From the NCBI GenBank assembly GCA_016779995.1, contig JADHMO010000001.1:213308-277307 (forward strand): a DNA stretch of 64,000 bases. Direction: 5' to 3'. The notes below the pieces were generated by a model. It had not been told where the DNA came from, searched no databases, and was given only the letters and a program-made list of their open reading frames with translations. This DNA is from Flavobacteriales bacterium. Lineage in GTDB: Bacteria; Bacteroidota; Bacteroidia; Flavobacteriales; UBA7312. Each line of letters starts with the position of its first letter. The stretch's first letter is position 1. Shown here piece after piece: positions 5,747 to 64,000 of the stretch. The position numbers were made by a program, and so were the translations under genes.

Positions 5747-6586
5747 ATGAGTGAGGATTTAAAGGCTATTTGCAATCAAGTTAGAAGAGATATTGTTCGT
5801 ATGGTACATGCTCAAAATTCAGGTCATCCTGGTGGCTCACTCGGTTGCGTTGAGTATTTTGTAGCTCTATATTTCGAAGTTATGAAGCATAATACTGACT
5901 TTGAGATGAATGGTATTGATGAAGATTTATTTTTTCTATCCAACGGTCATATCTCCCCTGTCCTTTATAGTGTGTTAGCAAGAAGAGGATATTTTGATGT
6001 TAAAGAATTATCGACTTTCAGAACCATAAACTCAAGACTTCAGGGACACCCTACCACTCACGATAAACTTCCTGGCGTACGAATTGCCTCAGGCTCTTTA
6101 GGTCAAGGTATGTCAGTAGCAATTGGTGCAGCACTTACTAAAAAATTAAATAATGATTCGTCCATCGTATATAGTTTGCACGGAGATGGTGAATTGCAAG
6201 AAGGGCAAATTTGGGAGGCTGCTATGTATGCTTCTGGCAACAAAGTCGATAATCTAATTTGTACAATTGACTACAATCAAAAGCAAATTGATGGCTCATT
6301 AGAGGAGGTTCTTCCCATGGGAAATATTTCTAATAAATTTAAAGCCTTTGATTGGGAAGTGTTAGAAATAAAGGACGGCAACAACATTTATGATGTTATT
6401 GACGTTTTAAATAAGGCTAAATCATTGTGTGGTAATGGAAAACCCATTTGTATAATTATGCATACTGAAATGGGAAATGGCGTTGATTTCATGATGGGAA
6501 CACACAAATGGCATGGTGTTGCGCCTAACGATGAACAGTTAGCAGATGCTCTGAGTCAAAATCCTGAATCACTTGGTGATTATTAA
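5747..6586 (+). CDS. Transketolase, N-terminal (TPP-binding) subunit
   Basis: SGHPGGSL, LSNGH, LQGHP, GSLGQG, GDGELQEGQIWEA, WHG. Confidence 0.96.
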   Translation: MSEDLKAICNQVRRDIVRMVHAQNSGHPGGSLGCVEYFVALYFEVMKHNTDFEMNGIDEDLFFLSNGHISPVLYSVLARRGYFDVKELSTFRTINSRLQGHPTTHDKLPGVRIASGSLGQGMSVAIGAALTKKLNNDSSIVYSLHGDGELQEGQIWEAAMYASGNKVDNLICTIDYNQKQIDGSLEEVLPMGNISNKFKAFDWEVLEIKDGNNIYDVIDVLNKAKSLCGNGKPICIIMHTEMGNGVDFMMGTHKWHGVAPNDEQLADALSQNPESLGDY

Positions 6587-7963
6587 ATGTTAAATTTAAA
6601 CAAACATATCTTATTAGCTATACTGATAATTTGTATCAGTTTATTAAACCCCTACAAAACCTTTGCCCAAAAAGATAAACCCGTAACTCGTGTTTTATTC
6701 ATATTTGATGCTTCTCAGAGTATGTACGCTCAATGGGACGGAAATAGTAGAATGGAAATTGCCAAAGAATTGCTTAGCAATATGTTAGATAGTCTTGACA
6801 ATAAAGAAAACTTGCAAGTGAGTTTACGATGCTATGGTCATCAAAAACCATCACCGCCTCAAGATTGTAGAGATACTAGGCTAGAAGTTGCTTTTGGAAA
6901 CAATACTATACCTGCCATAAAAAACAGATTAAAAACACTTCGACCAAAAGGCACTACCCCAATTGCAAAAGCACTAGAATCAGGTGCTTTAGATTTTCCT
7001 GCCGTCACCTCCAACTCTAGAAATATCGTTATTCTAATTACAGATGGTATAGAAGAATGTGGCGGAGACCCATGCGCTGTATCTAGACTATACCAAGAGA
7101 AAAAAATCATTCTTAAACCTTTTGTTATTGGTATTGGTCTTAGTGAAGAATACAAGAAAAATTTTGAATGTGTGGGTACTTTTTACGATGCCAGAAATCC
7201 TGATGAATTCAAAAACATTTTAGATGTAGTCATTTCTCAAGTGCTAAACTCAACCACTGCCCAAGTTAATCTACTGGACGAAAATGAAATGCCTACCGAA
7301 ACAAATGTACCCCTCAGCTTTTACGATTCTTTTTCAGGGATTCTACAATACAATTTTATACACACTATGAACAGTAGAGGAAATCCTGATACCTTGAATA
7401 TTGATCCAGTGCTAAGTTATAAAGTTGTTGCCCATACCATACCACAGACAGAAGCAGAAGGAGATTGGAAATTAATACCAGGCAAACACACTACAATACC
7501 AATAAAATGCCCACAAGGCACATTAAGTATTAGTTCTGCAGTTAATAAAACTAAAGTAGAATGTATTGTTAGAGAAAAAGGCAAAACCGAAACCCTAAAC
7601 GTTCAACAACTAAATACTAAACAAAGGTATTTAACAGGTGAATATGAGCTAGAAATTCTGACTTTACCTCGTATTTATGAAACTGTTAAAGTCAATCAAA
7701 GTGAATCTACCAATGTAAAAATTCCTGAACCAGGTTTAGTCGTTTTATCGGCCTCATCATCACCTTATGGAAGTATATTTGAAGTAAGCAATGAACTGAA
7801 ATGGGTTTGCGATTTGAATATCAACAAAGGAAGGCAAGCACTTTACGTATTACCAGGAAAATACAAGGTAGTGTATAGGGCAAAAAATGCCTCTTCTAGC
7901 GAATACACCAAAGAAAAAACATTTAAAGTAAGTTCTATAAAAACCGTATCTCTAAAACTATAA
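6587..7963 (+). CDS. Secreted VWA (MIDAS) domain protein
   Basis: Signal peptide, FIFDASQSM (DxSxS), GTTP, ILITDGIEECGGDPC. Confidence 0.88.
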   Translation: MLNLNKHILLAILIICISLLNPYKTFAQKDKPVTRVLFIFDASQSMYAQWDGNSRMEIAKELLSNMLDSLDNKENLQVSLRCYGHQKPSPPQDCRDTRLEVAFGNNTIPAIKNRLKTLRPKGTTPIAKALESGALDFPAVTSNSRNIVILITDGIEECGGDPCAVSRLYQEKKIILKPFVIGIGLSEEYKKNFECVGTFYDARNPDEFKNILDVVISQVLNSTTAQVNLLDENEMPTETNVPLSFYDSFSGILQYNFIHTMNSRGNPDTLNIDPVLSYKVVAHTIPQTEAEGDWKLIPGKHTTIPIKCPQGTLSISSAVNKTKVECIVREKGKTETLNVQQLNTKQRYLTGEYELEILTLPRIYETVKVNQSESTNVKIPEPGLVVLSASSSPYGSIFEVSNELKWVCDLNINKGRQALYVLPGKYKVVYRAKNASSSEYTKEKTFKVSSIKTVSLKL

Positions 7964-38836: not shown

Positions 38837-41365
38837 TTAGTTACTACCAATTGGAATAATTTCAAAATGAAAGTTTACTGGTGTCGAATAGCTTATTTTT
38901 TCAAAATTCCTGTGAAATTTTTTAAACTCATGAAGATATTTTAAATCAAATCTCATTAAACTTATCAAAAATGGTTTGAATAAATGTTTACCGCTAAAAA
39001 GAATATCGACAACTTCGAAAATATAATATTTATCTGATCTATAGTCTTTTTTAATCAAACTTAATAAAAACTGATCGTAATCTTTCTTAACGAATTCTAA
39101 CATTATTTCAATAGCTTCTGTCCAATAAATTTTGTGCCTATCATTAACATCAAAACAACAATAAAACAACCTATATACTTCATCATCTATTGATTCAATT
39201 TGCTCTGTATATTTTGTTAAATAATTAAGCATAATTCTTTTTCTATCACATGAATTTAAAACAACATTTGAATTAAATTCGTTCAAACGTCGTAATACAC
39301 CAGACTCAAAATAATATGGAGGATTTGCATTTTGAAATTGTTTAATTAAAAACTCATAAAACGGTTCTTTTTCCTTCGAATAATATTTGTTTACAATACA
39401 GTTTTCATAATTATTTAACTTATTTATCAAGTTAGTATCATCATATCTTACATTTACTCTATATTTTAATAGATTAGATTTTTGGTTTACTAAATAAAAA
39501 ATACTTGAAATTACTTTTTCATAATCATCTCTATTGTCATATTGCCTTATTATTTCTAGTTCTCTTGCAATTTCTAACTCTAATCCATCAGATATCCACT
39601 TATCAATTGAGTTTTTAAAATCATTAAAACTGCTTCTCCTAGCTTTAGAAAATTGTATTCGAGGAATTTTTGAAATTGGAATCATATATGAAAAATAAAT
39701 ATCAAACATACTTGGATAAACTATAGAAAGTTTATCACTTGAAAAACTTCTACAAAATAAATTTTCATCTAAGTGTGAACTGATTTTTTCTATTTCATTT
39801 GAAGAAAGAAAATATTTTAAACTATTCTCTTCCAAGTAACGATATAAAGTTATTTTTAGCGGTAGGCTATCAACATTATTTTCTTTTTTTAATTTATATG
39901 TAAAATCATTTCCACTTGATTGTGTTTCAAAAAATTCAAGTGGCTTATCTTTAATTAAATCATATACATCTGGGTAGAAAACTCTCAAAACTTCAATGCT
40001 GAAGAAGTCATATAAATCGACATTCCCAATTAATTTTCCAAAATTTAAACAAAAAGAATTTGACAGTCTTGTTACATCTCTTTTAGATTTTAGCCAGTCA
40101 TTTAAAATTTTTCTAATCTTATTATCATATTTATAACCTTTAAAATAAAAAAACTGTTCCTTCTCAATAATATCTGGAAATACTTCTTTAACATTAATAT
40201 AAAACTGTTGCTCAAGTACATTCTTTGGGATTAAAGGCAAACTGATTTCTAGTTGAAAAATCTTTTCTAAGTACTTTCTTTCATTGAAGCAATTGTGTGA
40301 CTTAATAGCACTTACCACATAGTTTCTGTCATATGCAACTAAAAAAAAGGTATTTCGGAAGTTTGCTGTATTACGAATCAATTTCAAAACCTCAATAATT
40401 TCACTAGTTGAAAGTCTATCAACATCATCAATAAAAATAATTAACTTTTTATCTATAGCTGAAAGAGTTGTATTTATTTCGCTATATAAAGTGTCAGTTG
40501 ATAAAGGTTTAAAAAAATATATCAAAAATTCATGTATTAATTTGATAGCAAGGTTAGAATTCAAATTTTGTACTTCTTTTGAATATCTTCTTATCAGTCT
40601 ACTTAAAGATAAGCTGTAAACTCTCAAATTTTCATCTAATATTTTAAAGAAATTCTGAACAATCGAATTAGAGTTTTTACTAGCCCAAACATTAAATTCA
40701 ATTGTTATAACATCGTCATTTTTCAATTTCTTTTGAAGTAAATCAATAAAAGATGTTTTCCCCATTCCCCAACTAGCATTAAGACCTATTGCAAAAGAAT
40801 TATCAAAATTGCTTTCCAATATTTTTTTTGATAATTGTGAAACATAATTAGAATATCCAAATTCATCCTCCCCATTTTCTCCTAATGATTCCTCATTAAA
40901 AAAGGCATCTTTAGAATTTAAAGGATTAATTACAGCTAATTTGCTTGTGTGAAGCACTAACCTAAATAATGTCAATAGAAGTATTACATCTAAATAATAA
41001 AAATTATCATTTAAAAAAAACTCTTCAAACCTCCATACTGAATCAACTTTAAATCTGTAAAAACTTAAATATATTAAGCTAATTAAAATTAATATTTTAC
41101 TAAAGTTTTTTGAAGGTTTGAATCTTTTGAAATCATAAATCATTGTAATAATTCCAATTAAAACTAGAATAATAAAAATCAAATCGACAGGATATGATTT
41201 TTCGATAAATGAAAATAAATACTCAACTAATGAGTTTGAAATAATATTTTCGATCAATCTTTTAAATAAAATAAATAATGAAATTGAAATAAAAAAGAAT
41301 AAGAAGTCACTTGATATTATAAACCTATATATTTTATTTATCCAATTTTTAGAATAAATTTTCAT
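38837..41365 (-). CDS. KAP family P-loop NTPase with four N-terminal TM helices
   Basis: AIGLNASWGMGKTS (Walker A), LIIFIDDVDRL (Walker B), FLVAYD, YLEKIFQ, RDVTRLSN. Confidence 0.88.
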   Translation of the reverse strand: MKIYSKNWINKIYRFIISSDFLFFFISISLFILFKRLIENIISNSLVEYLFSFIEKSYPVDLIFIILVLIGIITMIYDFKRFKPSKNFSKILILISLIYLSFYRFKVDSVWRFEEFFLNDNFYYLDVILLLTLFRLVLHTSKLAVINPLNSKDAFFNEESLGENGEDEFGYSNYVSQLSKKILESNFDNSFAIGLNASWGMGKTSFIDLLQKKLKNDDVITIEFNVWASKNSNSIVQNFFKILDENLRVYSLSLSRLIRRYSKEVQNLNSNLAIKLIHEFLIYFFKPLSTDTLYSEINTTLSAIDKKLIIFIDDVDRLSTSEIIEVLKLIRNTANFRNTFFLVAYDRNYVVSAIKSHNCFNERKYLEKIFQLEISLPLIPKNVLEQQFYINVKEVFPDIIEKEQFFYFKGYKYDNKIRKILNDWLKSKRDVTRLSNSFCLNFGKLIGNVDLYDFFSIEVLRVFYPDVYDLIKDKPLEFFETQSSGNDFTYKLKKENNVDSLPLKITLYRYLEENSLKYFLSSNEIEKISSHLDENLFCRSFSSDKLSIVYPSMFDIYFSYMIPISKIPRIQFSKARRSSFNDFKNSIDKWISDGLELEIARELEIIRQYDNRDDYEKVISSIFYLVNQKSNLLKYRVNVRYDDTNLINKLNNYENCIVNKYYSKEKEPFYEFLIKQFQNANPPYYFESGVLRRLNEFNSNVVLNSCDRKRIMLNYLTKYTEQIESIDDEVYRLFYCCFDVNDRHKIYWTEAIEIMLEFVKKDYDQFLLSLIKKDYRSDKYYIFEVVDILFSGKHLFKPFLISLMRFDLKYLHEFKKFHRNFEKISYSTPVNFHFEIIPIGSN

Positions 41366-42135
41366 TTTTTCACTGCTTTATAACCCATTGTAGATAAACT
41401 TCCCTTATTATCATACAAGGTCATATTCATTTCATCATCAATCACATAATATTCGCCGTCTTTACTTCCAATTACAAAATATTTATTACCTATTTTTTCT
41501 AATCTTTCAATTTTATTATTAAAGTCAGGAATAATGCCCTTATATTCTCCATTTGACACATGAATCTCATAGGTATATGAGAAATTAGCTGAAGTATTTA
41601 TAATCGTCCACTTACCAAATAAATTAGATTCAGTTTGAGGTGTTGGCTTTTGTTCATCTACTACCACCTGATTATCTGATGAAAATGCTTGACTAAAAAT
41701 TTGACTAAAATTTCTTGTTATTTCATTTTCTTGTCCTTTTGAATCAACATAAGCTAATGCTAATTGTTCTAAGTCACCTACAACAATTCTTTTTTTAATT
41801 AATAAATCAGAAGCAGGGTTGTTTTTAAGCACATACAACTTTATTAACCAATCGTTATATGGTCCTCCATTACCTAATCCATACGTTTTAAAATCGTCTT
41901 CATCTTTAAATTCGACTAACTGATAATAAAGTGATTTAAATTCTTCAAATACTATTTCAAATTTTTCTTCATCATTCAATTTCGGCTTGTTGTTCTTTTT
42001 CTTTTTAACTATTGTATTCTCTAGTTTTTGCTCAGTTATCGCTTCCTCAGTCTTATTTTTTGAATTGTCACTTTCATCTTTAGTTAAGTATACTATTACA
42101 GCACTTACAATAATTATAAAATATATTTTTTTCAT
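41362..42135 (-). CDS. Hypothetical membrane-anchored protein, translationally coupled to the KAP NTPase
   Basis: N-terminal hydrophobic anchor. Its stop overlaps the KAP start by 4 nt (ATGA). Confidence 0.7.
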   Translation of the reverse strand: MKKIYFIIIVSAVIVYLTKDESDNSKNKTEEAITEQKLENTIVKKKKNNKPKLNDEEKFEIVFEEFKSLYYQLVEFKDEDDFKTYGLGNGGPYNDWLIKLYVLKNNPASDLLIKKRIVVGDLEQLALAYVDSKGQENEITRNFSQIFSQAFSSDNQVVVDEQKPTPQTESNLFGKWTIINTSANFSYTYEIHVSNGEYKGIIPDFNNKIERLEKIGNKYFVIGSKDGEYYVIDDEMNMTLYDNKGSLSTMGYKAVKK

Positions 42136-45161: not shown

Positions 45162-47228
45162 TTAATTGGCTGTAATTTCAAACTCTGTTCTTCTGTTATT
45201 GGCTCTACCTGCTTTGGTATTGTTAGTATCTACTGGACGACTTGCCCCATAACCCATAGCCGTTACTCTACTCCCATCTACAGAACGAGAAACTAAATAG
45301 GCTCTAACGGCTTCTGCACGTCTTTGGGATAGCTTTTGATTGGCAACATCGCCACCCACATTGTCGGTATGTCCAGAAAGCTCAATCTTAAGACTTGGTA
45401 CATCGGTCATCAGTTGTATCAAACGGTCTAACTCAGGATAAGAATCTATCTTAACCTCAGCTCTTCCTGTGTCAAAGAATACATTTCTCAAAGCAATTTT
45501 ACTACCAATATCGATGTTCTTCAATTCAATGTCTTTGTTAATCATGTTGTAGGCTGAGCCTTCAGGTAAATTGAAGTTTTCTGAATGAAACAAATAGCCT
45601 TCAGCCTCCACCGAAATACCATAATTCAATCCCGATGGTAAAGACAATAAGAATTTGCCCGTAGCACTGTTAGAACGCATTACGGCATACACATCTCCCG
45701 TAGCATTATCAAATATTTTTATTTCTGCTTCTATAGGGTCTTGCAACAGACCGTCTAAAATACGCCCTTTGAAAACAGTTAAGCTATTGGCTACGGTAAC
45801 TTCCACACTTTCTGGTATATAAGTATCTTCTATAGGCGAAGCAATACTGGCAATGAGGTTGTCCTCACTAGCTACCGTCGGTTTTTTAGGTTCGCCCCAA
45901 AAGGTAGCACAATAGATATCCATACCACCATTACCTCCATCTCTATTGGAAGCGAAATAGGCATTTTTTCCGTTAGCAGAAATACTAAAATACAATTCAT
46001 CATAAGGGGTATTTATAGGATAACCCATATTGATAGGTTCGCCCCAAAGCCCCAATTCGTTACGGTAAGAAACAAAAACGTCATAGCCTCCTATGGAGGT
46101 ATGCCCCTGTGAACAGAAATACATAGTTTTGCCATCGGGTGCCATATATACCGAACCTTCTTGAAAACCTGAATTGACCTCTTGCCCTGCACTCTGTGCT
46201 TTTCCCCAAAAGGTTTCTTCCATATCTTTTTTACCACTAAAACTGATGTTCTTATCGCCACCATAGCCACCATCGGTAATGAAATAAACTTTGATATCTT
46301 GAGGGTCGTAAGAAGCAAAAGTTTCATTGGCTTCGGTATTGACCACCTTTGACATCTTAAGCTCGGGCTCACTCCATTCCGTTCCCTTGAGTTTAGATTC
46401 ATAAATATCACTTTGACCATCGGTGTATTTGAATAACAACAAACGCTGACCGTCATAGGCTAAAGAAGAAGATACATCGTCGCCCTCGCTATTTAGACTG
46501 TTTAGGGCTTTTATAGATTGCCACTTTCTCTTTTTGCGCTCGGCTGAGTATATATCAAAATTACCACTCTTGTTGGTGTTGAAGATAATCTCCGAACCAT
46601 CAGCAGAAATACTCGGTGCTATGTCATCGTAAAAGGAATTTAACTCCTTAACGTTATCTACCCATACTCTAGTTTTCATAGCGAAAATCTCAGCACCACT
46701 CTTGCTTTCTGATATGTGCTTTCTGTTCAACTTTTTGTAGGGTTCTAATTCTTTATCATTAGCTAAAGTACCATAGCGTAAAAACGACTTTTCGGCTTGT
46801 TCAAAATCCTGTTCTAGCTGATAGGCTTTACCCAATAAAAAATATAAAAAAGGTACTGCCTCATCTCCTGCCAACTCTAAAGATTTTTTAAGGAATGGCA
46901 TAGCCTTATAAGGGGTATTGGTATACAAATAGGCGTGACCTACTTTTCTATTTAAATCTGCATTATTTGGGTTAAACTCTTGGGCTGGCAAATAAAATTC
47001 TAAGGCTTTGGAGTACTCATTAGCGGCGTACACCATAGCTAATACTTTAGCCTTTCCTTTCTCCAACCATTCGTCACCCAACTCTAAATTGGCTTTGGCT
47101 TCTTCAAAACCTGCTTTATCGTCTTTAAAATTACCTTTCTTGAAAGCTACATCTTGAGCGAATAAGCTACAGGTCATTATGAAAAATACTAGTGTAAAAA
47201 ACTGTTTCATATCTCTTTTTATTCGCAA
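45162..47228 (-). CDS. TPR + PD40 + OmpA family envelope protein (PorE-like architecture)
   Basis: N-terminal TPRs, PD40 repeats (PSISADG, MAPDGKTMYF, SIGGYDVF), OmpA C-terminus GHTDNVG...LSQRRA...NRRTEF. Confidence 0.9.
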   Translation of the reverse strand: MRIKRDMKQFFTLVFFIMTCSLFAQDVAFKKGNFKDDKAGFEEAKANLELGDEWLEKGKAKVLAMVYAANEYSKALEFYLPAQEFNPNNADLNRKVGHAYLYTNTPYKAMPFLKKSLELAGDEAVPFLYFLLGKAYQLEQDFEQAEKSFLRYGTLANDKELEPYKKLNRKHISESKSGAEIFAMKTRVWVDNVKELNSFYDDIAPSISADGSEIIFNTNKSGNFDIYSAERKKRKWQSIKALNSLNSEGDDVSSSLAYDGQRLLLFKYTDGQSDIYESKLKGTEWSEPELKMSKVVNTEANETFASYDPQDIKVYFITDGGYGGDKNISFSGKKDMEETFWGKAQSAGQEVNSGFQEGSVYMAPDGKTMYFCSQGHTSIGGYDVFVSYRNELGLWGEPINMGYPINTPYDELYFSISANGKNAYFASNRDGGNGGMDIYCATFWGEPKKPTVASEDNLIASIASPIEDTYIPESVEVTVANSLTVFKGRILDGLLQDPIEAEIKIFDNATGDVYAVMRSNSATGKFLLSLPSGLNYGISVEAEGYLFHSENFNLPEGSAYNMINKDIELKNIDIGSKIALRNVFFDTGRAEVKIDSYPELDRLIQLMTDVPSLKIELSGHTDNVGGDVANQKLSQRRAEAVRAYLVSRSVDGSRVTAMGYGASRPVDTNNTKAGRANNRRTEFEITAN

Positions 47229-57357: not shown

Positions 57358-59391
57358 ATGAAATACACCCCATACCTTTTACTTCTTTGTATCCTTTTTT
57401 CATGTCGCCACGATTTTGAAAAACCCACTTGGGATACTGATATTAGTGCGCCTATAGCTTATACTACTTTAAATCTTACGGATATTGTTAACGATAGCAG
57501 TATACAATTTGACACACTAGCTGATAACAGCTTAAAATTTATCTATCAAAAAGAAATTATCAACTATAATTTCGATAGTCTGATTCATTTAAAACCCATT
57601 AGCACGACTAAAAATGTTAAGCTAGAAAGCATCAATTTTTCAAATACAACAGTCACTCATTCCATAACTATGGGAAACTTAATTTCCTCAATAGATTTTG
57701 GCACGATTTTATTTCCTAATGGTGGCACAGCAGTTATCCCTGCCTATTCAGACTTGCTCAATGAAACCTTTCCTATTGATGCTAACGACTATTTTGAGGA
57801 AATGACCTTCACCGATGGATACCTAGATTTGACCATTGAAAATGGACTACCTACCGATTTGAGTAATGTCGTTATAGAACTTCGTAATGAGGGTGAAACC
57901 AACAACATTATTACGATGAATATTCCCTTACTGCCAAGTGGAGAAAGTGAGACAACCACAGAATCTTTAGCTGGTCAAACATTATTCGGCAATTTAGAGG
58001 CTGAGATAATTAGTGCCGATATTGTGGGAACAGCACCCAATCCTGTAACTATTGATTATAGCGATGCTCTAACGGCTAAAATCGTAATTCGTGATATCGA
58101 ACTCCAAGAAGGAATTGCCGTTTTCCCAAGTCAAGAAATTTTTGATGAAGATACTGTCGTATCCTTTGATATTGGAGATGTAAAACTAAAAAGAGTATTG
58201 GTGGCAGAAGGTGGCGTAGAAGTTGTAGGCGTAAGCACCATACAAGATACCCTAAAGATAGAATATAAAATTCCTGGAACTACTTTAAATGGTCAGCCTT
58301 TTGAATTTTATTTCGAACTACCTCCTGCTCCTGAGGGGGGCTCAATTAGTGAAACCAAACTTTTCGACTTTTCTGGGTACGAAATAGATATGACAGGTAA
58401 ATATGGAGATACTATCAATACCATATACACCGAATCAAGAGGCTGGATTGACTCATCAGGTGTTGTCACTCACATTTCACTAGAAGATAGCGTATTTAAT
58501 ACTATTACCATCAAGGAAATAATTCCTGAAAAAGCTTGGGGTTATATGGGTAAAGACACCATCAATGAAAGTCAAGAATTAGATTTTAGCGATTTTTCAG
58601 ATTTCAGCGGACAGTTTGATTTAGAACATATCGAAGTGAAACTATTGACTCAAAACTCCATAGGTGCTAAGGCAGATGTGCGTATTAATACTTTTAAAAG
58701 TACAAGTGACCAAAATGAAATTGTGTTGAATAGCGATGTGCTATCCTCTGCTATCTCTATTGGTTCAGCCACAGAAAACCCCAACTCTATCCCAGAAGTA
58801 TCTCCTAGCAATAGTACGGTAGTATTTAACGAAGTGAATTCTAACATAGACGAACTCATAGAAGATAAACCCCATACCTTAGGTGTCGATTTTGAGCTAT
58901 TGCTCAATCCTGATGACAATCAAGAAGATGGTTTTTTATTCAAAAACTACGGTGTTAAATCAGAGCTGCAAATTGAAATACCCTTATCCTTTTCTGGCTC
59001 AAACATTGTCTTAAAAGATACAGTAGATGTTTCTTTTTCAATAGATAATATTGAACAGGCTTCCTTCACTCTACTAGCACAAAATAGCTACCCCATCGAT
59101 GCCGAAATAAAAATGTATTTGCTAGACCAAAACAATATGGTATTAGAAAGTCTTCTTTCTGAACAAATCGTTCAAGCTAGTGAAGTCGATGCTAACGGCA
59201 AAACTAGTTCTAGTACCTCTAGTGAATTGACCTTCGCTTTCACTAATATCAGCGAAAGCTTATCGCTATGTAAAAAAATAGCTTTTGAAGTTACTCTCAA
59301 TACACAACCCTCAAACCAATTCGTCACTATTTACAGTAACTATGCCATGGATCTAAAACTCGTTGCTAACTTTAATTATACCGTAGAATAA
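57358..59391 (+). CDS. Large beta-rich hypothetical lipoprotein
   Basis: Lipobox LFSC, PTWDTDISAPI. Start ATG 57358, after TAAATTTG at 57342-57349. Confidence 0.75.
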   Translation: MKYTPYLLLLCILFSCRHDFEKPTWDTDISAPIAYTTLNLTDIVNDSSIQFDTLADNSLKFIYQKEIINYNFDSLIHLKPISTTKNVKLESINFSNTTVTHSITMGNLISSIDFGTILFPNGGTAVIPAYSDLLNETFPIDANDYFEEMTFTDGYLDLTIENGLPTDLSNVVIELRNEGETNNIITMNIPLLPSGESETTTESLAGQTLFGNLEAEIISADIVGTAPNPVTIDYSDALTAKIVIRDIELQEGIAVFPSQEIFDEDTVVSFDIGDVKLKRVLVAEGGVEVVGVSTIQDTLKIEYKIPGTTLNGQPFEFYFELPPAPEGGSISETKLFDFSGYEIDMTGKYGDTINTIYTESRGWIDSSGVVTHISLEDSVFNTITIKEIIPEKAWGYMGKDTINESQELDFSDFSDFSGQFDLEHIEVKLLTQNSIGAKADVRINTFKSTSDQNEIVLNSDVLSSAISIGSATENPNSIPEVSPSNSTVVFNEVNSNIDELIEDKPHTLGVDFELLLNPDDNQEDGFLFKNYGVKSELQIEIPLSFSGSNIVLKDTVDVSFSIDNIEQASFTLLAQNSYPIDAEIKMYLLDQNNMVLESLLSEQIVQASEVDANGKTSSSTSSELTFAFTNISESLSLCKKIAFEVTLNTQPSNQFVTIYSNYAMDLKLVANFNYTVE

Positions 59392-60560
59392 TGCCAAAGT
59401 ATTTTTCGATGTTCTTAGTGGCTCTTACTTTATCGGCCTATTCGCAAGAAAGCTCATTAGAGTTTAATACAGATATTGGTTTGTTTAACAGTAGCATCAA
59501 CGCCCAATTACTGTCACAGTCCTATGGCTTTTTAGATGCTATGGAAAAGAACAACATCATAGACGCTTTAAAAGCAGAAAATAATATTGCCTTTGAAAGT
59601 AATAACACTTTTGTTTATCAAAATAAAAAAGGCTGGGGGCTGAGTTTATCTAACCATATAGGAGCATACGCCACCTACTCAAAATCATTAGTAGAATTGA
59701 GTCTGTTGGGAAACACTCCATTCAAGGGTGAAAACCTTAAACTAGACCCCTTTGATATTACTGCTTTTAACTACTCACAACTAGATTTTTCATATCAATG
59801 GAGTAGAAAAATACAAACGAGTGTAGGGCTACTTTTGGGACACCATTTTCTAGATGCTACTGTCAATGAAGCTCGTTTTTACACCCATCCTCAAGCTGCT
59901 TTCATTAACTATCAAGTGGATTATGAGGCTCACTACACGGATACAATAGATTTTTTACAAAAACCTTTTAGCAAGAACGGTTATGGTGCTGTTTTTGGAA
60001 TGACATACAAAGACAGTATCAGTAAGGGACAAATCGAGTTATCGATTAGTGATTTAGGATTTATTAGGTGGAACGATAAGACTAGCAATATGCATATTGA
60101 AAGTCAGTATGAATTTGAAGGCATCAATGTTGATGACTTTCTCAGTTTTAGCGATAGCATCATCAGAAATGAACTAGATAGTCTACAATCGGATTTACAA
60201 AGTAATATAAAGGAAAGCTATACGTGGCAACTTCCTACTAGGTTTAGACTAAGTATAAATCAGCCTTTATACAATTCAATAATTCAAGGCTACTCCCTAT
60301 CCATTGAACACCGAATGAACCTTTATAATATTCCAAAACTGACTTTAGAAGTTCATAAAAAAATGAAAAAACATCGTTTGGCATTAGGTTATCATATTGG
60401 TGGTATTGAGCATAATGGTTTTCAATTCAGCTACCTTTATGGTGGAGAAAAAACCCATTTCCACATTTACACCAAACAGTTTAATGCTGGTATTCCCACT
60501 TTAAGCTATGGTCTTCATATAGGTATTGGCATAAAAAGAGTATTTTCGAGCAGTAAATAA
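59391..60560 (+). CDS. Outer-membrane beta-barrel protein (DUF5723-like)
   Basis: Signal peptide, amphipathic strands, SDLGFIRWN, LPTRF. Overlaps the upstream stop by 1 nt. Confidence 0.65.
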   Translation: MPKYFSMFLVALTLSAYSQESSLEFNTDIGLFNSSINAQLLSQSYGFLDAMEKNNIIDALKAENNIAFESNNTFVYQNKKGWGLSLSNHIGAYATYSKSLVELSLLGNTPFKGENLKLDPFDITAFNYSQLDFSYQWSRKIQTSVGLLLGHHFLDATVNEARFYTHPQAAFINYQVDYEAHYTDTIDFLQKPFSKNGYGAVFGMTYKDSISKGQIELSISDLGFIRWNDKTSNMHIESQYEFEGINVDDFLSFSDSIIRNELDSLQSDLQSNIKESYTWQLPTRFRLSINQPLYNSIIQGYSLSIEHRMNLYNIPKLTLEVHKKMKKHRLALGYHIGGIEHNGFQFSYLYGGEKTHFHIYTKQFNAGIPTLSYGLHIGIGIKRVFSSSK

Positions 60561-60568
60561 GCGATACC

Positions 60569-61360
60569 GTGATAAGTAAATTAAAATTTAAAGACTCCTT
60601 TTTTCTGATTGCTGGGCCCTGTGCTATTGAAAGCGAAGAAATGGCTTTTGATATTGCTAGACACGTCAAAGCAATTTGTGAAAAATTAGAAATTCCTTTT
60701 GTTTTTAAAGGTTCTTATCGAAAAGCTAATCGTTCACGTTTAGACTCTTTTACAGGTATTGGTGATGAAAAAGCACTTACTATTCTGAAGAATATTAGAA
60801 AAGAGCTAGATATTCCCGTAACTACAGATATACATTCTGTAGAGGAGGCAAAATTAGCTGCTAAACACGTGGATATTTTACAAATTCCAGCTTTCTTGTG
60901 CCGCCAAACTGACTTGATAGTAGCTGCTGCCAAAACGGGCAAAACCGTTAATATCAAGAAAGGTCAATTCTTGTCACCCCAAGCTATGCAATTTGCCGTA
61001 CAAAAGGTAAAAGATAGCGACAACAATTGTGTGCTAATTACGGAAAGAGGCAGTCAGTTTGGTTATCATGAATTGGTAGTGGATTTTAAAGGGATACCTC
61101 TTATGCAAGAATACGCCCCTGTTGTAATGGACGTTACACATTCCCTACAACAGCCCAACCAAAGTAGCGGTGTTACAGGAGGTCAACCTCAACTAATAGA
61201 AACCATAGCTAAAGCAGCTATTGCTAGTGGTGTAGATGGTATTTTTATAGAAACTCACCCCAAACCCCAAGAGGCTAAATCTGATGGTGCGAATATGCTA
61301 CCCCTAGACCAATTGGAAGACTTATTGTATAAGTTAGTGCGACTGAAAAAAGCCCTTTAA
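60569..61360 (+). CDS. kdsA: 3-deoxy-8-phosphooctulonate (KDO8P) synthase
   Basis: IAGPCAIES, KANRSR, QIPAFLCRQTDL, NIKKGQF, ERG, DVTHSLQ, FIETHP...SDG. Confidence 0.97.
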   Translation: MISKLKFKDSFFLIAGPCAIESEEMAFDIARHVKAICEKLEIPFVFKGSYRKANRSRLDSFTGIGDEKALTILKNIRKELDIPVTTDIHSVEEAKLAAKHVDILQIPAFLCRQTDLIVAAAKTGKTVNIKKGQFLSPQAMQFAVQKVKDSDNNCVLITERGSQFGYHELVVDFKGIPLMQEYAPVVMDVTHSLQQPNQSSGVTGGQPQLIETIAKAAIASGVDGIFIETHPKPQEAKSDGANMLPLDQLEDLLYKLVRLKKAL

Positions 61361-61370
61361 TTTTTGTAAA
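61271..61370 (+). repeat. Direct repeat copy 1 (kdsA 3' end plus 10 nt)
   Basis: Ungapped 100-bp alignment to 63026-63125 with 14 mismatches. Confidence 0.92.
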
Positions 61371-61479
61371 TTTGATTTAATAAAAATTTAAAGCCACTCT
61401 CCTTTTTTACATTTTCATTTATGATGCAATTGACTAATCAGAAAGACTGATGCTCAATTAGAATTGTATTATACTTAAA

Positions 61480-63033
61480 ATGGAAAAAACGCTTACTCAT
61501 AAAAGTCAAATCAAAAAAAGTATCAGTGAAACAGAATTTTTAAAACAATTTGTTTTTACTCCCTTTAAAATAGACGACTTAAAAAACTTCAATTCAAAAA
61601 AAATTGGAAATCATTATTTATCATTTCATGACAAACTAAACATTTGCGATTTTCAAAATGATAGTTTTGAATGTATTATAGTGGGAGATTTGTATGACTA
61701 CCAATATACAGATTTTGATAATGAGCACATATTGGAAAATATTTGCCGTACCTATTTACACAAAGAAATATTTGATTTTGTTCAATTATTTGAAAAATAC
61801 TGTGGAAGTTATCTTGTATTCTTCTATGATAAAGAATTAGACAATACCTTCGTTTTTACAGATGCAACAGGTACAAGAGAATGTTATTATCATACAACCG
61901 ATAATAATCAACTCATAGCAGCATCTCAAGCTGTTACAATAAACTCTATTTGTTCACTTGAGATTGATGATAGTGAAGAAGCTAAAAGCTTTTTTAATTC
62001 TAAAGCCTTTCAAAAGCGAATGACCTTTGTTGCTGACACCACAAATTTTAAAGGAGTTAAACGACTAAAACCAAACTATCTATTAGACCTTAATAAAAAG
62101 TTATCAATTAGGTATTTTCCATATGAAAAGCTCCAAAGAAGTGATGTGGATTCAACTGCTAAGATAGCAGCAGAAATGATTAAAGGATATATTACCTCTG
62201 CAAGTAAAAGATATAAAATGGCTATTCCAGTAAGTGGTGGTTGGGAAAGTAGAGTTTTACTTGCTGCTAGTAAAGACATTAGCGATAAAACTTATTATTT
62301 TGTTTATAAGCATAGTAATTATTCTGATAATCATCCTGATATTAAATATCCAAAGATGCTATTAGAACAATTAGGATTAACATTACATATTTTTGAATGC
62401 TCAAAAAATATTTCTGAAGAACACCATAACAATCTTGGTAAAATTTTATCATTTCCTAGATTTTCAAATTTCAATTATTTATTTAGTGCAGTCAATCAGC
62501 ATATACCTAACTATCTAATACTAAATGGCAATGTAAGTGAAATTTGTAGAATGCAATGGGATGAAATCAAAATTAAAGATGAGTATAGAATAGCTTTTCT
62601 AGAGAACTATCCATATCAACAATTTGCACTAAAGCATTATAAAAAATGGTTAGAGGACAACAATCCAACATTCGAGAAATATAATTATAGAGCTTCAGAT
62701 ATGCTATACTGGGAAGAAAATTCTGCGAATTGGGTGGGAAAAGCTAATAGTGAAACAAGAATTATTGCAGATGCATTACAACCTTTTAACTCAAAAAAAC
62801 TCATTAAAACATTAATGTCTGTGGACAAGAAATATAGACAAAAACAACACCCTATTCTCTATAAAAAAATAATAGAAACCTTATGGGCTGAATGTCTCTC
62901 TGTTCCAATAAATCCAGGTTTCAAGAAGAAAACAATACGATTTATGCAAATTATCGGTATCTATGGGATTTATAGAGAACTGTATATAAATTTACAATTA
63001 AAACTAGCCAAAATAAAATCTAAAAGAAGCTAA
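61480..63033 (+). CDS. Asparagine-synthetase-like (N-type ATP pyrophosphatase) protein, low GC
   Basis: FTDATGTRECYY (GATase-II-like) and IPVSGGWESRVLLA (PP-loop-like). A TAAATTTG -7 element lies at 61367-61374. Confidence 0.65.
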   Translation: MEKTLTHKSQIKKSISETEFLKQFVFTPFKIDDLKNFNSKKIGNHYLSFHDKLNICDFQNDSFECIIVGDLYDYQYTDFDNEHILENICRTYLHKEIFDFVQLFEKYCGSYLVFFYDKELDNTFVFTDATGTRECYYHTTDNNQLIAASQAVTINSICSLEIDDSEEAKSFFNSKAFQKRMTFVADTTNFKGVKRLKPNYLLDLNKKLSIRYFPYEKLQRSDVDSTAKIAAEMIKGYITSASKRYKMAIPVSGGWESRVLLAASKDISDKTYYFVYKHSNYSDNHPDIKYPKMLLEQLGLTLHIFECSKNISEEHHNNLGKILSFPRFSNFNYLFSAVNQHIPNYLILNGNVSEICRMQWDEIKIKDEYRIAFLENYPYQQFALKHYKKWLEDNNPTFEKYNYRASDMLYWEENSANWVGKANSETRIIADALQPFNSKKLIKTLMSVDKKYRQKQHPILYKKIIETLWAECLSVPINPGFKKKTIRFMQIIGIYGIYRELYINLQLKLAKIKSKRS

Positions 63034-63125
63034 ATAAAATGGTGCTAATAGGCTACCCCTTGACCATTTGGAAGACTTATTGAAAAAGTTATTACGGCTG
63101 AAAAAAGCCCTTAAATTTTTGTAAA
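63026..63125 (+). pseudogene. Remnant duplicate of the kdsA 3' end (direct repeat copy 2)
   Basis: In the kdsA frame it reads EAK*NGANRLPLDHLEDLLKKLLRLKKAL, versus kdsA EAKSDGANMLPLDQLEDLLYKLVRLKKAL. Confidence 0.88.
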
Positions 63126-63129
63126 CTAA

Positions 63130-63651
63130 TTGACTGAGCCTCTTAACATAAATCAAATGAGTATTATTGATATAGAACTCCTACCCCTAAACAAAAACGA
63201 TAGCAAACTCTTATACGCACTGTTTAATGATGAAAAAGTACTCCAATCATATCGGCGAGAATCTTTACTAAGTCAAAAGCAAAGTGATGATTTTTTACAA
63301 AAAATTACTAGCAGAGGATGTTGGACATGGAAAATACTTAATTACAAGGAAAAAAATAGTTTTTTAGGCATCTGTTCCTTGCACCACTACGACCAAGAAA
63401 ACAAAACAATAGAAATTGGAGGTACTCTTTTTTCAATTTATTGGGGTAAAGGAATAATGGTAAGCGCATTTATTCAATTGATTGAAAAAGCTAGAAAAGA
63501 ATTCAATATCAATAAAGTCATTGGCAAAACACATATCTCAAATAAAAAGGCAATACAAATGGTACATAAATTAGGCTTCACTATCTTACAAAAAGATGAC
63601 GAAGAAGTAGTTTTAATTAAAGAAATAAACCAAAAAACTACTTCACCCTAA
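63130..63651 (+). CDS. GNAT (RimJ/RimL family) N-acetyltransferase
   Basis: LGICSLH, IEIGGTL...YWGKGIM, NKKAIQMVHKLGF. Start codon uncertain. Confidence 0.8.
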   Translation: MTEPLNINQMSIIDIELLPLNKNDSKLLYALFNDEKVLQSYRRESLLSQKQSDDFLQKITSRGCWTWKILNYKEKNSFLGICSLHHYDQENKTIEIGGTLFSIYWGKGIMVSAFIQLIEKARKEFNINKVIGKTHISNKKAIQMVHKLGFTILQKDDEEVVLIKEINQKTTSP

Positions 63652-64000
63652 AGGCTGTTCTTCTGTTAGTGGCTCTACCCTCGTCTGTATCGTTAGTAGC
63701 GATGGGCTGACTTGCACCAAAGCCTTTGAAAGTCATTCTGCTGGCACTTATGCCATTTTCTACTAGAAAATCATAAACGGCTTTGGCTCTATTTTCTGAA
63801 AGTTTAAGGTTATGCGATTCTGCACCTACATTATCGGTGTGTCCTTCTATTTCTACCTCAAGACTCGCATTATTATTCATAAAATTAACCAAGGTATTGA
63901 GCTCTACCTCGGATTCATTTTTTAGGGTATAAGCATCGGTATCAAAGAAAATATTTTTCAATACAATCTTACTTCCTTTATTGAGTCGTTGCAATGGTAT
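63638..64000 (-). CDS. C-terminal OmpA domain of an envelope protein (continues beyond the window)
   Basis: LKNIFFDT, IEGHTDNVG, LSENRAKAV, NRRTAF. Confidence 0.9.
   Translation of the reverse strand: MPLQRLNKGSKIVLKNIFFDTDAYTLKNESEVELNTLVNFMNNNASLEVEIEGHTDNVGAESHNLKLSENRAKAVYDFLVENGISASRMTFKGFGASQPIATNDTDEGRATNRRTAFRVK

Follow-up and report, generated by a model that had tools for sequence, protein, structure and literature searches.

In the present work we examine the surroundings of the kdsA gene in a 64,000-nucleotide stretch of a Flavobacteriales genome (assembly GCA_016779995.1, contig JADHMO010000001.1, positions 213,308 to 277,307; hereafter the window, to which positions refer unless another locus is named). 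Directly behind kdsA lies a foreign gene of low GC content, here called ORF517, which is bracketed by a second, partial copy of the kdsA 3' end. An original prediction, made from the sequence alone, had pointed out this bracketing, which our analysis supports. It had read the arrangement as the scar of a circle that carried a kdsA fragment, recombined into kdsA and restored the gene, making kdsA an attachment site for a minimal cargo cassette. We will argue that the gene was probably acquired by recombination between alleles of this locus, with no dedicated recombinase involved.

The duplicated 3' end of kdsA

The kdsA gene (60569..61360, plus strand) is intact and encodes a 3-deoxy-8-phosphooctulonate synthase of 263 amino acids, with the Pfam family DAHP_synth_1 matched over the full length (E 1.8e-64) and the conserved C-terminal motif KSDGANML present. 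By protein search it is 97-90% identical to the KdsA of many metagenome-assembled genomes of marine Flavobacteriales, and close relatives at 97-80% occur in marine metagenomes. Repeat finding and MAFFT alignment give a direct repeat of its 3' end without gaps, in which 61269-61370 (copy 1) and 63024-63125 (copy 2), both on the plus strand, are identical at 88 of 102 positions. Over the 100 nucleotides originally described (61271-61370 and 63026-63125) the same repeat gives 86/100, and the earlier observation is thus reproduced, with a full extent of 102 nt. Because the window holds only one other direct repeat of at least 40 nt, which is 76% identical and lies between two probable OmpA-domain paralogues, a chance origin can be dismissed.

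The arrangement is no assembly artefact, a possibility that the original prediction had itself raised. Four Logan assemblies of separate runs reproduce the window sequence at 100% identity: one contig extends from 59718 to 64000 through both copies, two break off in or just past copy 2, and the last one already within ORF517. In addition, 63031-63228 is matched exactly by a contig from another study. A contig break at 63070-63099 in run X1 is a small single-nucleotide-polymorphism bubble, and in runs X11, X12, X15 and X19 the depth is too low for the joints to appear. The metagenomic origin of the data and the numerous co-occurring kdsA alleles might bring to mind a chimera of two co-occurring strains, but the probability of this is negligible: the junctions are reproduced by five independent assemblies from four studies, the ~12 nt shared by ORF517 and kdsA at their joint are too short to mislead an assembler of k=31 or more, and the joint recurs, in a different context, in a second carrier (L103) described below.

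Copy 1 comprises the last 30 codons of kdsA, the stop and 10 nt. It is identical at 95-97 of 102 positions to the kdsA 3' ends of four related loci (L088, L089, L096 and L103), and encodes the conserved KdsA peptide EAKSDGANMLPLDQLEDLL.KLVRLKKAL, followed by the stop. The next ~16-25 nt (TTTTTGTAAATTTGAT...) are also common to relatives that lack the insert. By these alignments copy 1 is the orthologous copy, and the sequence after it is native too. The idea that the gene had been restored by a tail supplied by the element does not agree with this.

Between copy 1 and ORF517 extends a conserved intergenic region, leader 1 (61361..61479, plus strand), as seen in an alignment with L090, L095, L102, L103, L104 and L107. 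Found in it are TAAATTTG at 61367-61374, the block TTTCATTTATGATG and, at 61437-61451, the palindrome ATCAG-N5-CTGAT, which has no second occurrence in the window. In L090, L102, L104 and L107 homologous leaders precede other genes, and wherever an allele has plus-strand genes downstream, a leader of ~110 nt lies behind kdsA (L090 6793-6904, L104 6143-6246, L107 5018-5124, L103 6324-6449). By this comparison leader 1 is native to the clade and was not imported with ORF517, and nothing to the left of the ORF517 ATG is foreign. Its invariant blocks are TTTTTGTAAATTTGA, CCACTCACCT and TTTCATTTATGATG, and the bases flanking the palindrome (TCAG..CTGA) co-vary in L107 (TGTCAG/CTGACA). Most filled alleles retain the motif TAnnTTTG directly past the kdsA stop; L090 has TAGATTCG there, and the empty alleles have CAAATTTG. 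In leader 1 of L103, 49-50 nt are missing between two TGAT repeats. RNAalifold, applied to seven leaders, found no consensus structure; if the palindrome has a function at all, it is more likely to be that of a DNA site than of an RNA structure. A scan for sigma-70 promoters and terminators gave no more hits than shuffled sequence, the sigma-70 model being unsuited to Bacteroidota promoters. No tRNA or tmRNA genes and no Rfam families are present in the window.

Copy 2 is a displaced and decaying orphan of a kdsA 3' end. In the kdsA frame it reads EAK, a stop, NGANRLPLDHLEDLLKKLLRLKKALKFL and a further stop; the in-frame TAA and the overlap with the ORF517 stop, both noted originally, are confirmed. 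The S, D and M residues that all of 80 KdsA sequences share are gone from copy 2, and its own stop has changed from TAA to AAA. The codon differences between copies 1 and 2 are 4 synonymous and 7 non-synonymous. The left edge of copy 2 is an illegitimate joint, at which the 3' end of ORF517 (...AAAATCTAAAAG) meets kdsA codon 234.

The bracketed gene

ORF517 (61480..63033, plus strand, 517 amino acids) is absent from about 20 related loci. Its GC content of 0.285, compared to a mean of 0.359 (standard deviation 0.039) for the open reading frames (ORFs) of the window, is the third lowest of 52, and in 300-nt windows the insert has 0.25-0.33 against 0.36-0.40 in kdsA, which bears out the low GC content reported originally. 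The nearest full-length homologue outside the clade is 56% identical. The stop of ORF517 lies within copy 2, which provides the last three codons and the stop; save for these last ~3 codons, the C-terminus is native in comparison with homologues. The foreign segment is almost exactly ORF517 itself. There is no integrase gene in or near the insert, as had been stated originally, and no integrase or recombinase Pfam family in the flank gene tables of the relatives; a repeat search found no inverted repeat at the ORF517 boundaries.

No Pfam family matches ORF517 above threshold (GATase_7 at E 0.006), the match to TIGR01536 (asparagine synthase) is sub-threshold (E 2e-9, 37 bits, cut-off 267), and a profile search against PDB sequences gave no match. 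An AlphaFold model based on 31 homologues, on the other hand, has a predicted local distance difference test score (pLDDT) of 93.2 and a predicted template-modelling score (pTM) of 0.92. Foldseek places it closest to carbapenam synthetase, beta-lactam synthetase, E. coli AsnB, human ASNS and TsnB9, with E values of 5e-16 to 1e-13 (entries 1q15, 1jgt, 1ct9 and 6gq3; template-modelling scores about 0.5-0.6). The model displays the two-domain fold of these enzymes, an Ntn-type N-terminal domain and a PP-loop ATP pyrophosphatase, and the PP-loop-like sequence SGGWES is encoded at about 62233-62250. The N-terminal catalytic Cys of glutamine-dependent AsnB is absent in ORF517 and in 30 aligned homologues. 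In CarA and beta-lactam synthetase the N-domains are inactive, and ORF517 resembles in this respect those AsnB relatives in which glutaminase activity has been lost. The model thus predicts an ATP-dependent adenylating or amide-forming enzyme of the AsnB/beta-lactam synthetase fold, with a degenerate glutaminase domain. Such a protein has no role in recombination or in its own movement.

The family of ORF517 is large and uncharacterised, and has no Pfam model. The 33 matches of a word-index search might suggest that it is rare, but a full hidden Markov model search returns 1764 clusters at E<=1e-30. Some homologues adjoin genes for polysaccharide or for the core of lipopolysaccharide (LPS), for example in L002 (methyltransferase, HAD, YfhO, flippase) and in L004 (a heptosyltransferase-family gene). 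Such neighbours hint at precursors of sugars or polysaccharides as candidate substrates of the enzyme. Since the homologues in L001-L004, which stand in unrelated contexts, have no flanking repeats, the family is not intrinsically a repeat-bracketed cassette. Searches of phage records gave no match, of plasmids two weak matches (23% identity) and of IMG/VR six (24-30% identity), and they provide no evidence for carriage of ORF517 by phages or plasmids.

The kdsA-ompA interval in related strains

To place the insert in context, about 25 related loci were collected from contigs of close KdsA relatives and from a scan of JGI metagenomes with the lineage-specific upstream neighbour, a DUF5723 gene. 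A scan of a genome collection with KdsA gave only relatives of at most 74% identity among the matches listed, for which the junction is uninformative. The common gene order at these loci is DUF5723, kdsA, the ~110-nt leader, a 56-aa ORF with a weak DUF4177 match, a cytochrome c-like lipoprotein of 184 aa, a GNAT acetyltransferase of 162-164 aa, and a convergent PD40/OmpA-domain gene (ompA). The same arrangement is found in the distant members L104-L109, with kdsA at 80% nucleotide identity.

In the window the GNAT N-acetyltransferase gene (63157..63651, plus strand, 164 aa; Pfam Acetyltransf_3, E 2.6e-20) and the 3' end of the convergent ompA gene (63638..64000, minus strand) follow copy 2. 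In L103-L109 an orthologue of the GNAT gene likewise precedes ompA, and L102 retains a fragment. Being part of the common islet of the relatives, the GNAT gene is therefore native and is not the right flank of the insertion site; the original prediction had treated it as the flank of an empty site, but it is the last of three genes in an ancestral islet. The conserved right flank is ompA, whose fragment is 92-97% identical to the gene directly after kdsA in the empty relatives. As a separate observation, ompA is also involved in the other long direct repeat of the window, between 45180-45254 and 63650-63724 (76% over 75 nt). This repeat joins the 3' ends of two minus-strand ORFs, the OmpA-domain gene (63638 to 64000) and the ORF at 45162-47228, and it probably represents paralogous C-terminal domains and no scar.

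Within the species-level cluster of the window the flanks are 92-97% identical at the nucleotide level, and the islet is highly variable. It is wholly deleted, with a 53-nt spacer left, in L088, L089, L096 and L097; L091 is empty too, with a 22-nt spacer and more diverged kdsA and ompA. In L095 (11970-12330) there remain the leader and a cytochrome c gene truncated after ~65 codons, the GNAT gene being gone, and in L102 (1290-1653, a GOS contig) a deletion fuses the 56-aa ORF to the middle of the GNAT gene. These two internal deletions are independent. In the more distant L090 (kdsA 81% at the nucleotide level) the full islet is present without the GNAT gene, and in a more distant group (L098, L099 and L101) a SAM-dependent (S-adenosylmethionine) methyltransferase gene stands in place of the islet. 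Taken together, the alignments mark the kdsA-ompA interval as a strain-variable islet and gene-swapping hotspot in uncultured marine Flavobacteriales, whose ancestral content would be the leader, the 56-aa ORF, the cytochrome c-like gene and the GNAT gene. The empty and alternative alleles that the original prediction had proposed to look for thus exist.

Its broader claim, that kdsA is a general attachment site, is not shown by these loci, as only the ORF517-bearing ones among them have a second kdsA tail. No kdsA-tail repeat was found around the other cargo alleles (L090, L095, L098, L104 and L107).

Two of the loci also show a change of identity along the flank. Compared to window 59391-64000, L091 is 93% identical at the nucleotide level in DUF5723, 86% in kdsA and 85% in ompA, and the corresponding values for L098 are 90%, 81% and 75%. 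The drop at the DUF5723/kdsA boundary suggests a recombination breakpoint there and a mosaic history of the kdsA-ompA segment.

A second carrier and a secondary deletion

We now consider L103, the second carrier of ORF517, with a GNAT 79% identical to that of the window and flanks of 94-96% nucleotide identity. Its ORF517 is 92.7% identical at the nucleotide level, but is disrupted by a frameshift in poly-A, by a TGG>TGA change and by an N gap, which means either a pseudogene or poor sequence quality. The gene is framed by kdsA and, at 6227-6323, by a second kdsA tail. The joint, GCCAAAATAAAATCTAAAAG followed directly by AAGCTAA, is identical in the window and in L103, and it is also present in contigs of runs X10, X16, X18 and X20.

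Copy 2 of L103 reads EANSDGANMLPLNQLEDFLKKLVQLKKAL up to a stop; this is a conserved KdsA C-terminus that no internal stop interrupts. Behind it come TTTTTTTTGTAAATTTGAT, a complete second leader, the cytochrome c gene, the GNAT gene and ompA. From this tail and second leader it follows that the duplicated unit originally was the kdsA tail plus leader, ~210 nt, which replaces the 100-bp unit described originally. Aligned to L103, the window is without 6324-6948, which is leader 2 plus most of the cytochrome c gene, and the 31 nt behind copy 2 (63126..63156, plus strand) align with the last ~30 nt of the 184-aa gene of L103 and are a remnant of its 3' end. As shown by this alignment, the window lineage has lost ~640 bp, with the breakpoint at the right edge of the repeat, 63125. 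The original prediction had further assigned to copy 1 a -7 element that could drive the cargo and that copy 2 lacks. It is indeed absent from copy 2 of the window, but TAAATTTG is a conserved post-kdsA motif that L103 keeps after both copies, and it is missing after copy 2 of the window because the deletion breakpoint falls there.

The two copies of L103 differ at 15 of 90 coding positions; of the affected codons, 7 differ synonymously and 5 non-synonymously. Among the latter, three replacements in copy 2 (D>N, Q>K and R>Q) are states of the functional alleles L091 and L095. These differences arose under purifying selection, therefore in another functional kdsA allele before the join. Leaders 1 and 2, moreover, are of two types, each of which occurs singly in other strains. 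On this evidence the structure appears to consist of two head-to-tail alleles of the locus that enclose ORF517, a single joint being illegitimate and the rest homology.

While the joint is constant, the bodies of copy 2 differ by carrier. That of the window is decayed and resembles the A-type resident allele of kdsA, and that of L103 resembles L091 and L095. A third variant, in X10, still encodes the KdsA tail without a stop, and X20 has a fourth. Between the window and L103, copy 2 differs at 21 of 102 positions, compared to ~13% at four-fold sites genome-wide, and about half of these differences go from L103-type to A-type resident states. The two carriers are collinear, at 93%, from 57857 to 63120, and their right flanks (GNAT 88%, ompA 94%) are more diverged than the left (95-96%). 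The functional kdsA tail of L095 is A-type in its first part (56/56) and of the L103 copy-2 type in its last part (33/36), a pattern that a crossover between two copies or alleles would leave; it rests on three sites.

Alleles in seawater populations

In the seawater runs of one study the empty, L095-type and filled alleles co-occur in the same samples. The joint of the empty allele, 61386>63640, has a depth of 28.9 in X10, 9.9 in X16 and 23.4 in X24, and that of the L095-type allele (61364>63632, with 346 nt between) is seen in X24 and X25. The depth of ORF517 in X10 is about 12. The same run contains, at a depth of 4.3, an A-type kdsA tail that passes straight into the cytochrome c remnant and GNAT, which comes either from copy 2 of a window-like strain or from a kdsA-deletion-GNAT allele that does not carry ORF517. 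All four contigs whose KdsA is identical to that of the window carry ORF517, and the filled state looks fixed in this strain.

The most ambiguous object in these data is a Logan contig of X10 with a length of 1737 nt, a depth of 11.7 and overlapping ends (window 62530-62557), which spans window 61456-63125. Its order is the 3' part of ORF517, the kdsA copy, TTTGATGTAATTGACCAATCATAAAGACTGATACTCA (the short leader 1 of L103) and the 5' part of ORF517. Its period of ~1707 nt corresponds to one repeat period, as the spacing from copy to copy in L103 is 1713 nt, and no in- or out-edges are visible. Because another contig passes uninterrupted through a 31-mer between the known variant sites of this cyclic contig, we infer a further variant within that 31-mer, which makes the k-mer chain from copy to leader specific to the contig. 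Three origins are conceivable for the contig: excision as a circle, tandem amplification through unequal crossing-over of the copies, or branch pruning in a strain-rich graph. Amplification or artefact is the more probable, a free circle being doubtful because a non-replicating circle at genome-like depth is unlikely. As regards excision, which the original prediction had proposed to look for in reads, no excision joint is seen in X1, and this contig is the one candidate trace, with the other two explanations just given.

Origin of the structure

The explanation that we regard as reasonably probable combines an illegitimate joint with homologous pairing in kdsA, either by homology-facilitated illegitimate recombination (HFIR) or by a Campbell-type crossover, and needs no dedicated recombinase; spread by homologous recombination and, in the window, deletion and decay would then have followed. 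In the founding event, DNA carrying kdsA, leader and ORF517 would have recombined with a chromosome bearing a different allele of the locus. One side would have paired homologously in kdsA, and on the other the end of ORF517 would have been joined illegitimately to codon 234 of the resident kdsA. An equivalent route would be a circularised fragment entering through a single Campbell-type crossover, and sequence alone cannot separate the two. Either would yield kdsA (copy 1), leader 1, ORF517, the orphan tail (copy 2), leader 2, cytochrome c and GNAT, i.e. the state of L103. Recombination through a kdsA fragment, the core of the original prediction, is in this form the most economical account, and the cyclic contig of X10 agrees with it.

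After the founding, the module probably spread by homologous recombination. In this step, which is less certain, ORF517 would move among strains between its two stretches of kdsA, the right crossover falling inside the recipient's own kdsA tail, and crossing-over between the copies may amplify or excise it. We read the diversity of copy 2 and the divergence of the flanks as such re-assortment, with gene conversion from copy 1 or neutral drift as possible contributions. In the window lineage, the ~640-bp deletion brought copy 2 next to the 31-nt remnant and GNAT, and the orphan has decayed.

Several points weigh against this explanation. A founding donor, with kdsA, leader and ORF517 and no orphan copy, was not found among the loci examined, and without it microhomology at the illegitimate joint cannot be read. 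The difference of 21/102 between the copies 2 is only moderately above the four-fold divergence, so that vertical descent with neutral decay could account for it; the allele-mosaic argument involves few sites; and the cyclic contig would fit a dedicated circular intermediate equally well.

The alternatives have to be judged against the same observations. If a single ancestral insertion had been inherited only vertically, with copy 2 diverging by neutral decay and perhaps gene conversion from copy 1, and with the non-carriers of the species cluster having lost the module by deletion between the repeats, one would expect the identical joint of all carriers and the collinearity of the window with L103, and a four-fold divergence as close to the 20% copy-2 divergence as the one found would be natural; deletions are, besides, frequent at this locus. 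It is harder to reconcile with this that copy 2 of L103 and of X10 still encodes a conserved KdsA tail, at variant sites that coincide with natural alleles, that about half of the copy-2 differences converge on A-type states, and that the right flank is the more diverged one. We hold vertical descent alone to be unlikely, though a reading to be taken seriously. An in-situ tandem duplication of kdsA tail and leader, followed by divergence and capture of ORF517 between the copies, would dispense with a second allele and would account for direct repeats around a gene without mobility genes. The copies, however, differ by 12-19% and the flanks of the carriers by only 4-7%, most differences in L103 either are synonymous or agree with other functional alleles, and the two leaders are of types found singly elsewhere, all of which makes this scenario very unlikely.

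A different view is that the 1.7-kb circle of kdsA tail, short leader and ORF517 is a mobile unit without an integrase, which repeatedly integrates at the kdsA 3' end and excises again, by means of a host Xer-like recombinase acting in trans or by single-crossover homologous recombination. The constant joint in at least four backgrounds with differing copy-2 bodies and downstream contexts speaks for it, as do the edgeless cyclic contig with its matching period and the palindrome in the leader. Nevertheless, we find it distinctly unlikely, since no recombinase gene lies in or near the unit, the repeat accompanies only one type of cargo among ~25 loci, the copies have no core in common and are identical over at most 12-15 nt in a row, a cycle in a k=31 graph also results from tandem amplification or pruned branches in a strain-rich region, and a depth of 11.7x is not expected of a non-replicating circle. 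In addition, the strain of the window is filled in all contigs with identical KdsA, and the excision joint is not seen in X1. There is, in the same way, a small chance that ORF517, kdsA tail and short leader form a self-targeting cassette without recombinase, a circle or tandem unit homing to the kdsA 3' end by homologous recombination. If so, the carried fragment of the target gene would serve as the address, kdsA would be left intact, and gene mobility in marine Flavobacteriales would here take a minimal form.

Comparison with known systems

Integrase-mediated islands and prophages target the 3' ends of tRNA, tmRNA or protein genes. As in these, a direct repeat of a 3' end brackets the insert here and the target gene is intact. 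The locus differs in that it lacks an integrase and an identical att core, that the native copy is the intact one, and that only one ORF was inserted. The insert carries no recombinase gene, its sole ORF having an AsnB-like fold, and no identical attL/attR core is present: the copies are 81-88% identical, and their longest identical runs (12-15 nt) differ between the window and L103. A replacement 3' end supplied by the element is not seen either, since copy 1 and the next ~16-25 nt match insert-free relatives, nor is the site shared by different cargo, the methyltransferase and 56-aa/cytochrome c/GNAT alleles being without a second tail. A literature search for kdsA as an integration site found nothing.

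Campbell-type single-crossover integration of circular DNA, e.g. of suicide plasmids, duplicates the homology on both sides of the insert and is reversible or amplifiable through the repeats. The cyclic contig of X10 has exactly that unit, but the homology here is only ~100-210 nt and 12-19% diverged. Xer-dependent integrating elements and pdif modules use 28-bp dif-like sequences as sites. They share with ORF517 the small cargo without its own recombinase gene and the repeated sites around it, while the repeat here is a diverged coding fragment; no shared exact core or 28-bp site pair was identified between the copies, no search with a dif model being made. As to integron cassettes, there is no attC-like inverted repeat at the ORF517 boundaries and no integrase gene in the flanks.

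The closest parallels are found elsewhere. HFIR is known from transformable Acinetobacter, S. pneumoniae and P. stutzeri, and also from E. coli conjugation (PMC3240628). The present locus shares with it that a homologous anchor is combined with a single illegitimate joint, that the element need not encode a recombinase and that the insertion lies beside the anchor gene. It is unlike these cases in that it is deduced from natural metagenomic alleles and was not observed experimentally, and in that the illegitimate end lies inside the resident anchor gene, giving a partial duplicate of the tail of an essential gene. For the orphan 3' ends at loci of type VI secretion systems (T6SS) and Rhs proteins, HFIR has been proposed as a putative mechanism (PMC5361080). 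In the 3'-end displacement of effector-immunity genes at Rhs, contact-dependent inhibition (CDI) and T6SS loci an incoming allele with its module likewise displaces the resident 3' end, which stays downstream as an orphan (PMC5361080). Those are polymorphic toxin loci with diversifying selection, at which arrays of several orphans can form, whereas here a housekeeping gene of the LPS pathway, a single orphan and a metabolic enzyme are involved.

Set beside these cases, the kdsA/ORF517 structure shows the sequence-testable features of HFIR-type 3'-end displacement. On one side there is a homologous anchor, kdsA and the upstream genes being 92-97% identical in the species cluster; on the other, the end of ORF517 is joined to kdsA codon 234 without extended homology; and downstream lies a displaced 3' fragment from a different allele, with its own leader, in L103. 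The mechanism is already known, and the locus looks like one more instance of a known process, located at a flexible-genome hotspot, not like a new kind of mobile element.

It is in this sense that the locus is of interest. It offers a natural example of a single foreign gene fixed beside an essential gene without mobile-element machinery, and wild populations preserve the intermediates, from the full islet through the insertion with a readable orphan to the insertion with a decayed orphan and a deletion, along with empty sites. A partial duplicate of a core gene can later act as a homology arm, with which the new gene moves between strains whatever lies downstream. For annotation, such orphan 3' fragments mark gene gain driven by recombination and not integrase activity. 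The practical importance is limited, as the mechanism is known and the cargo family, with thousands of members, is uncharacterised.

Another low-GC region of the window

Apart from the kdsA locus, we note that the two ORFs of lowest GC content in the window (0.24 and 0.27) lie together at 38837-42135 on the minus strand. They encode a KAP-family P-loop NTPase of 842 aa and a protein of 257 aa without a Pfam match, and the pair may be a small foreign islet of the defence type.

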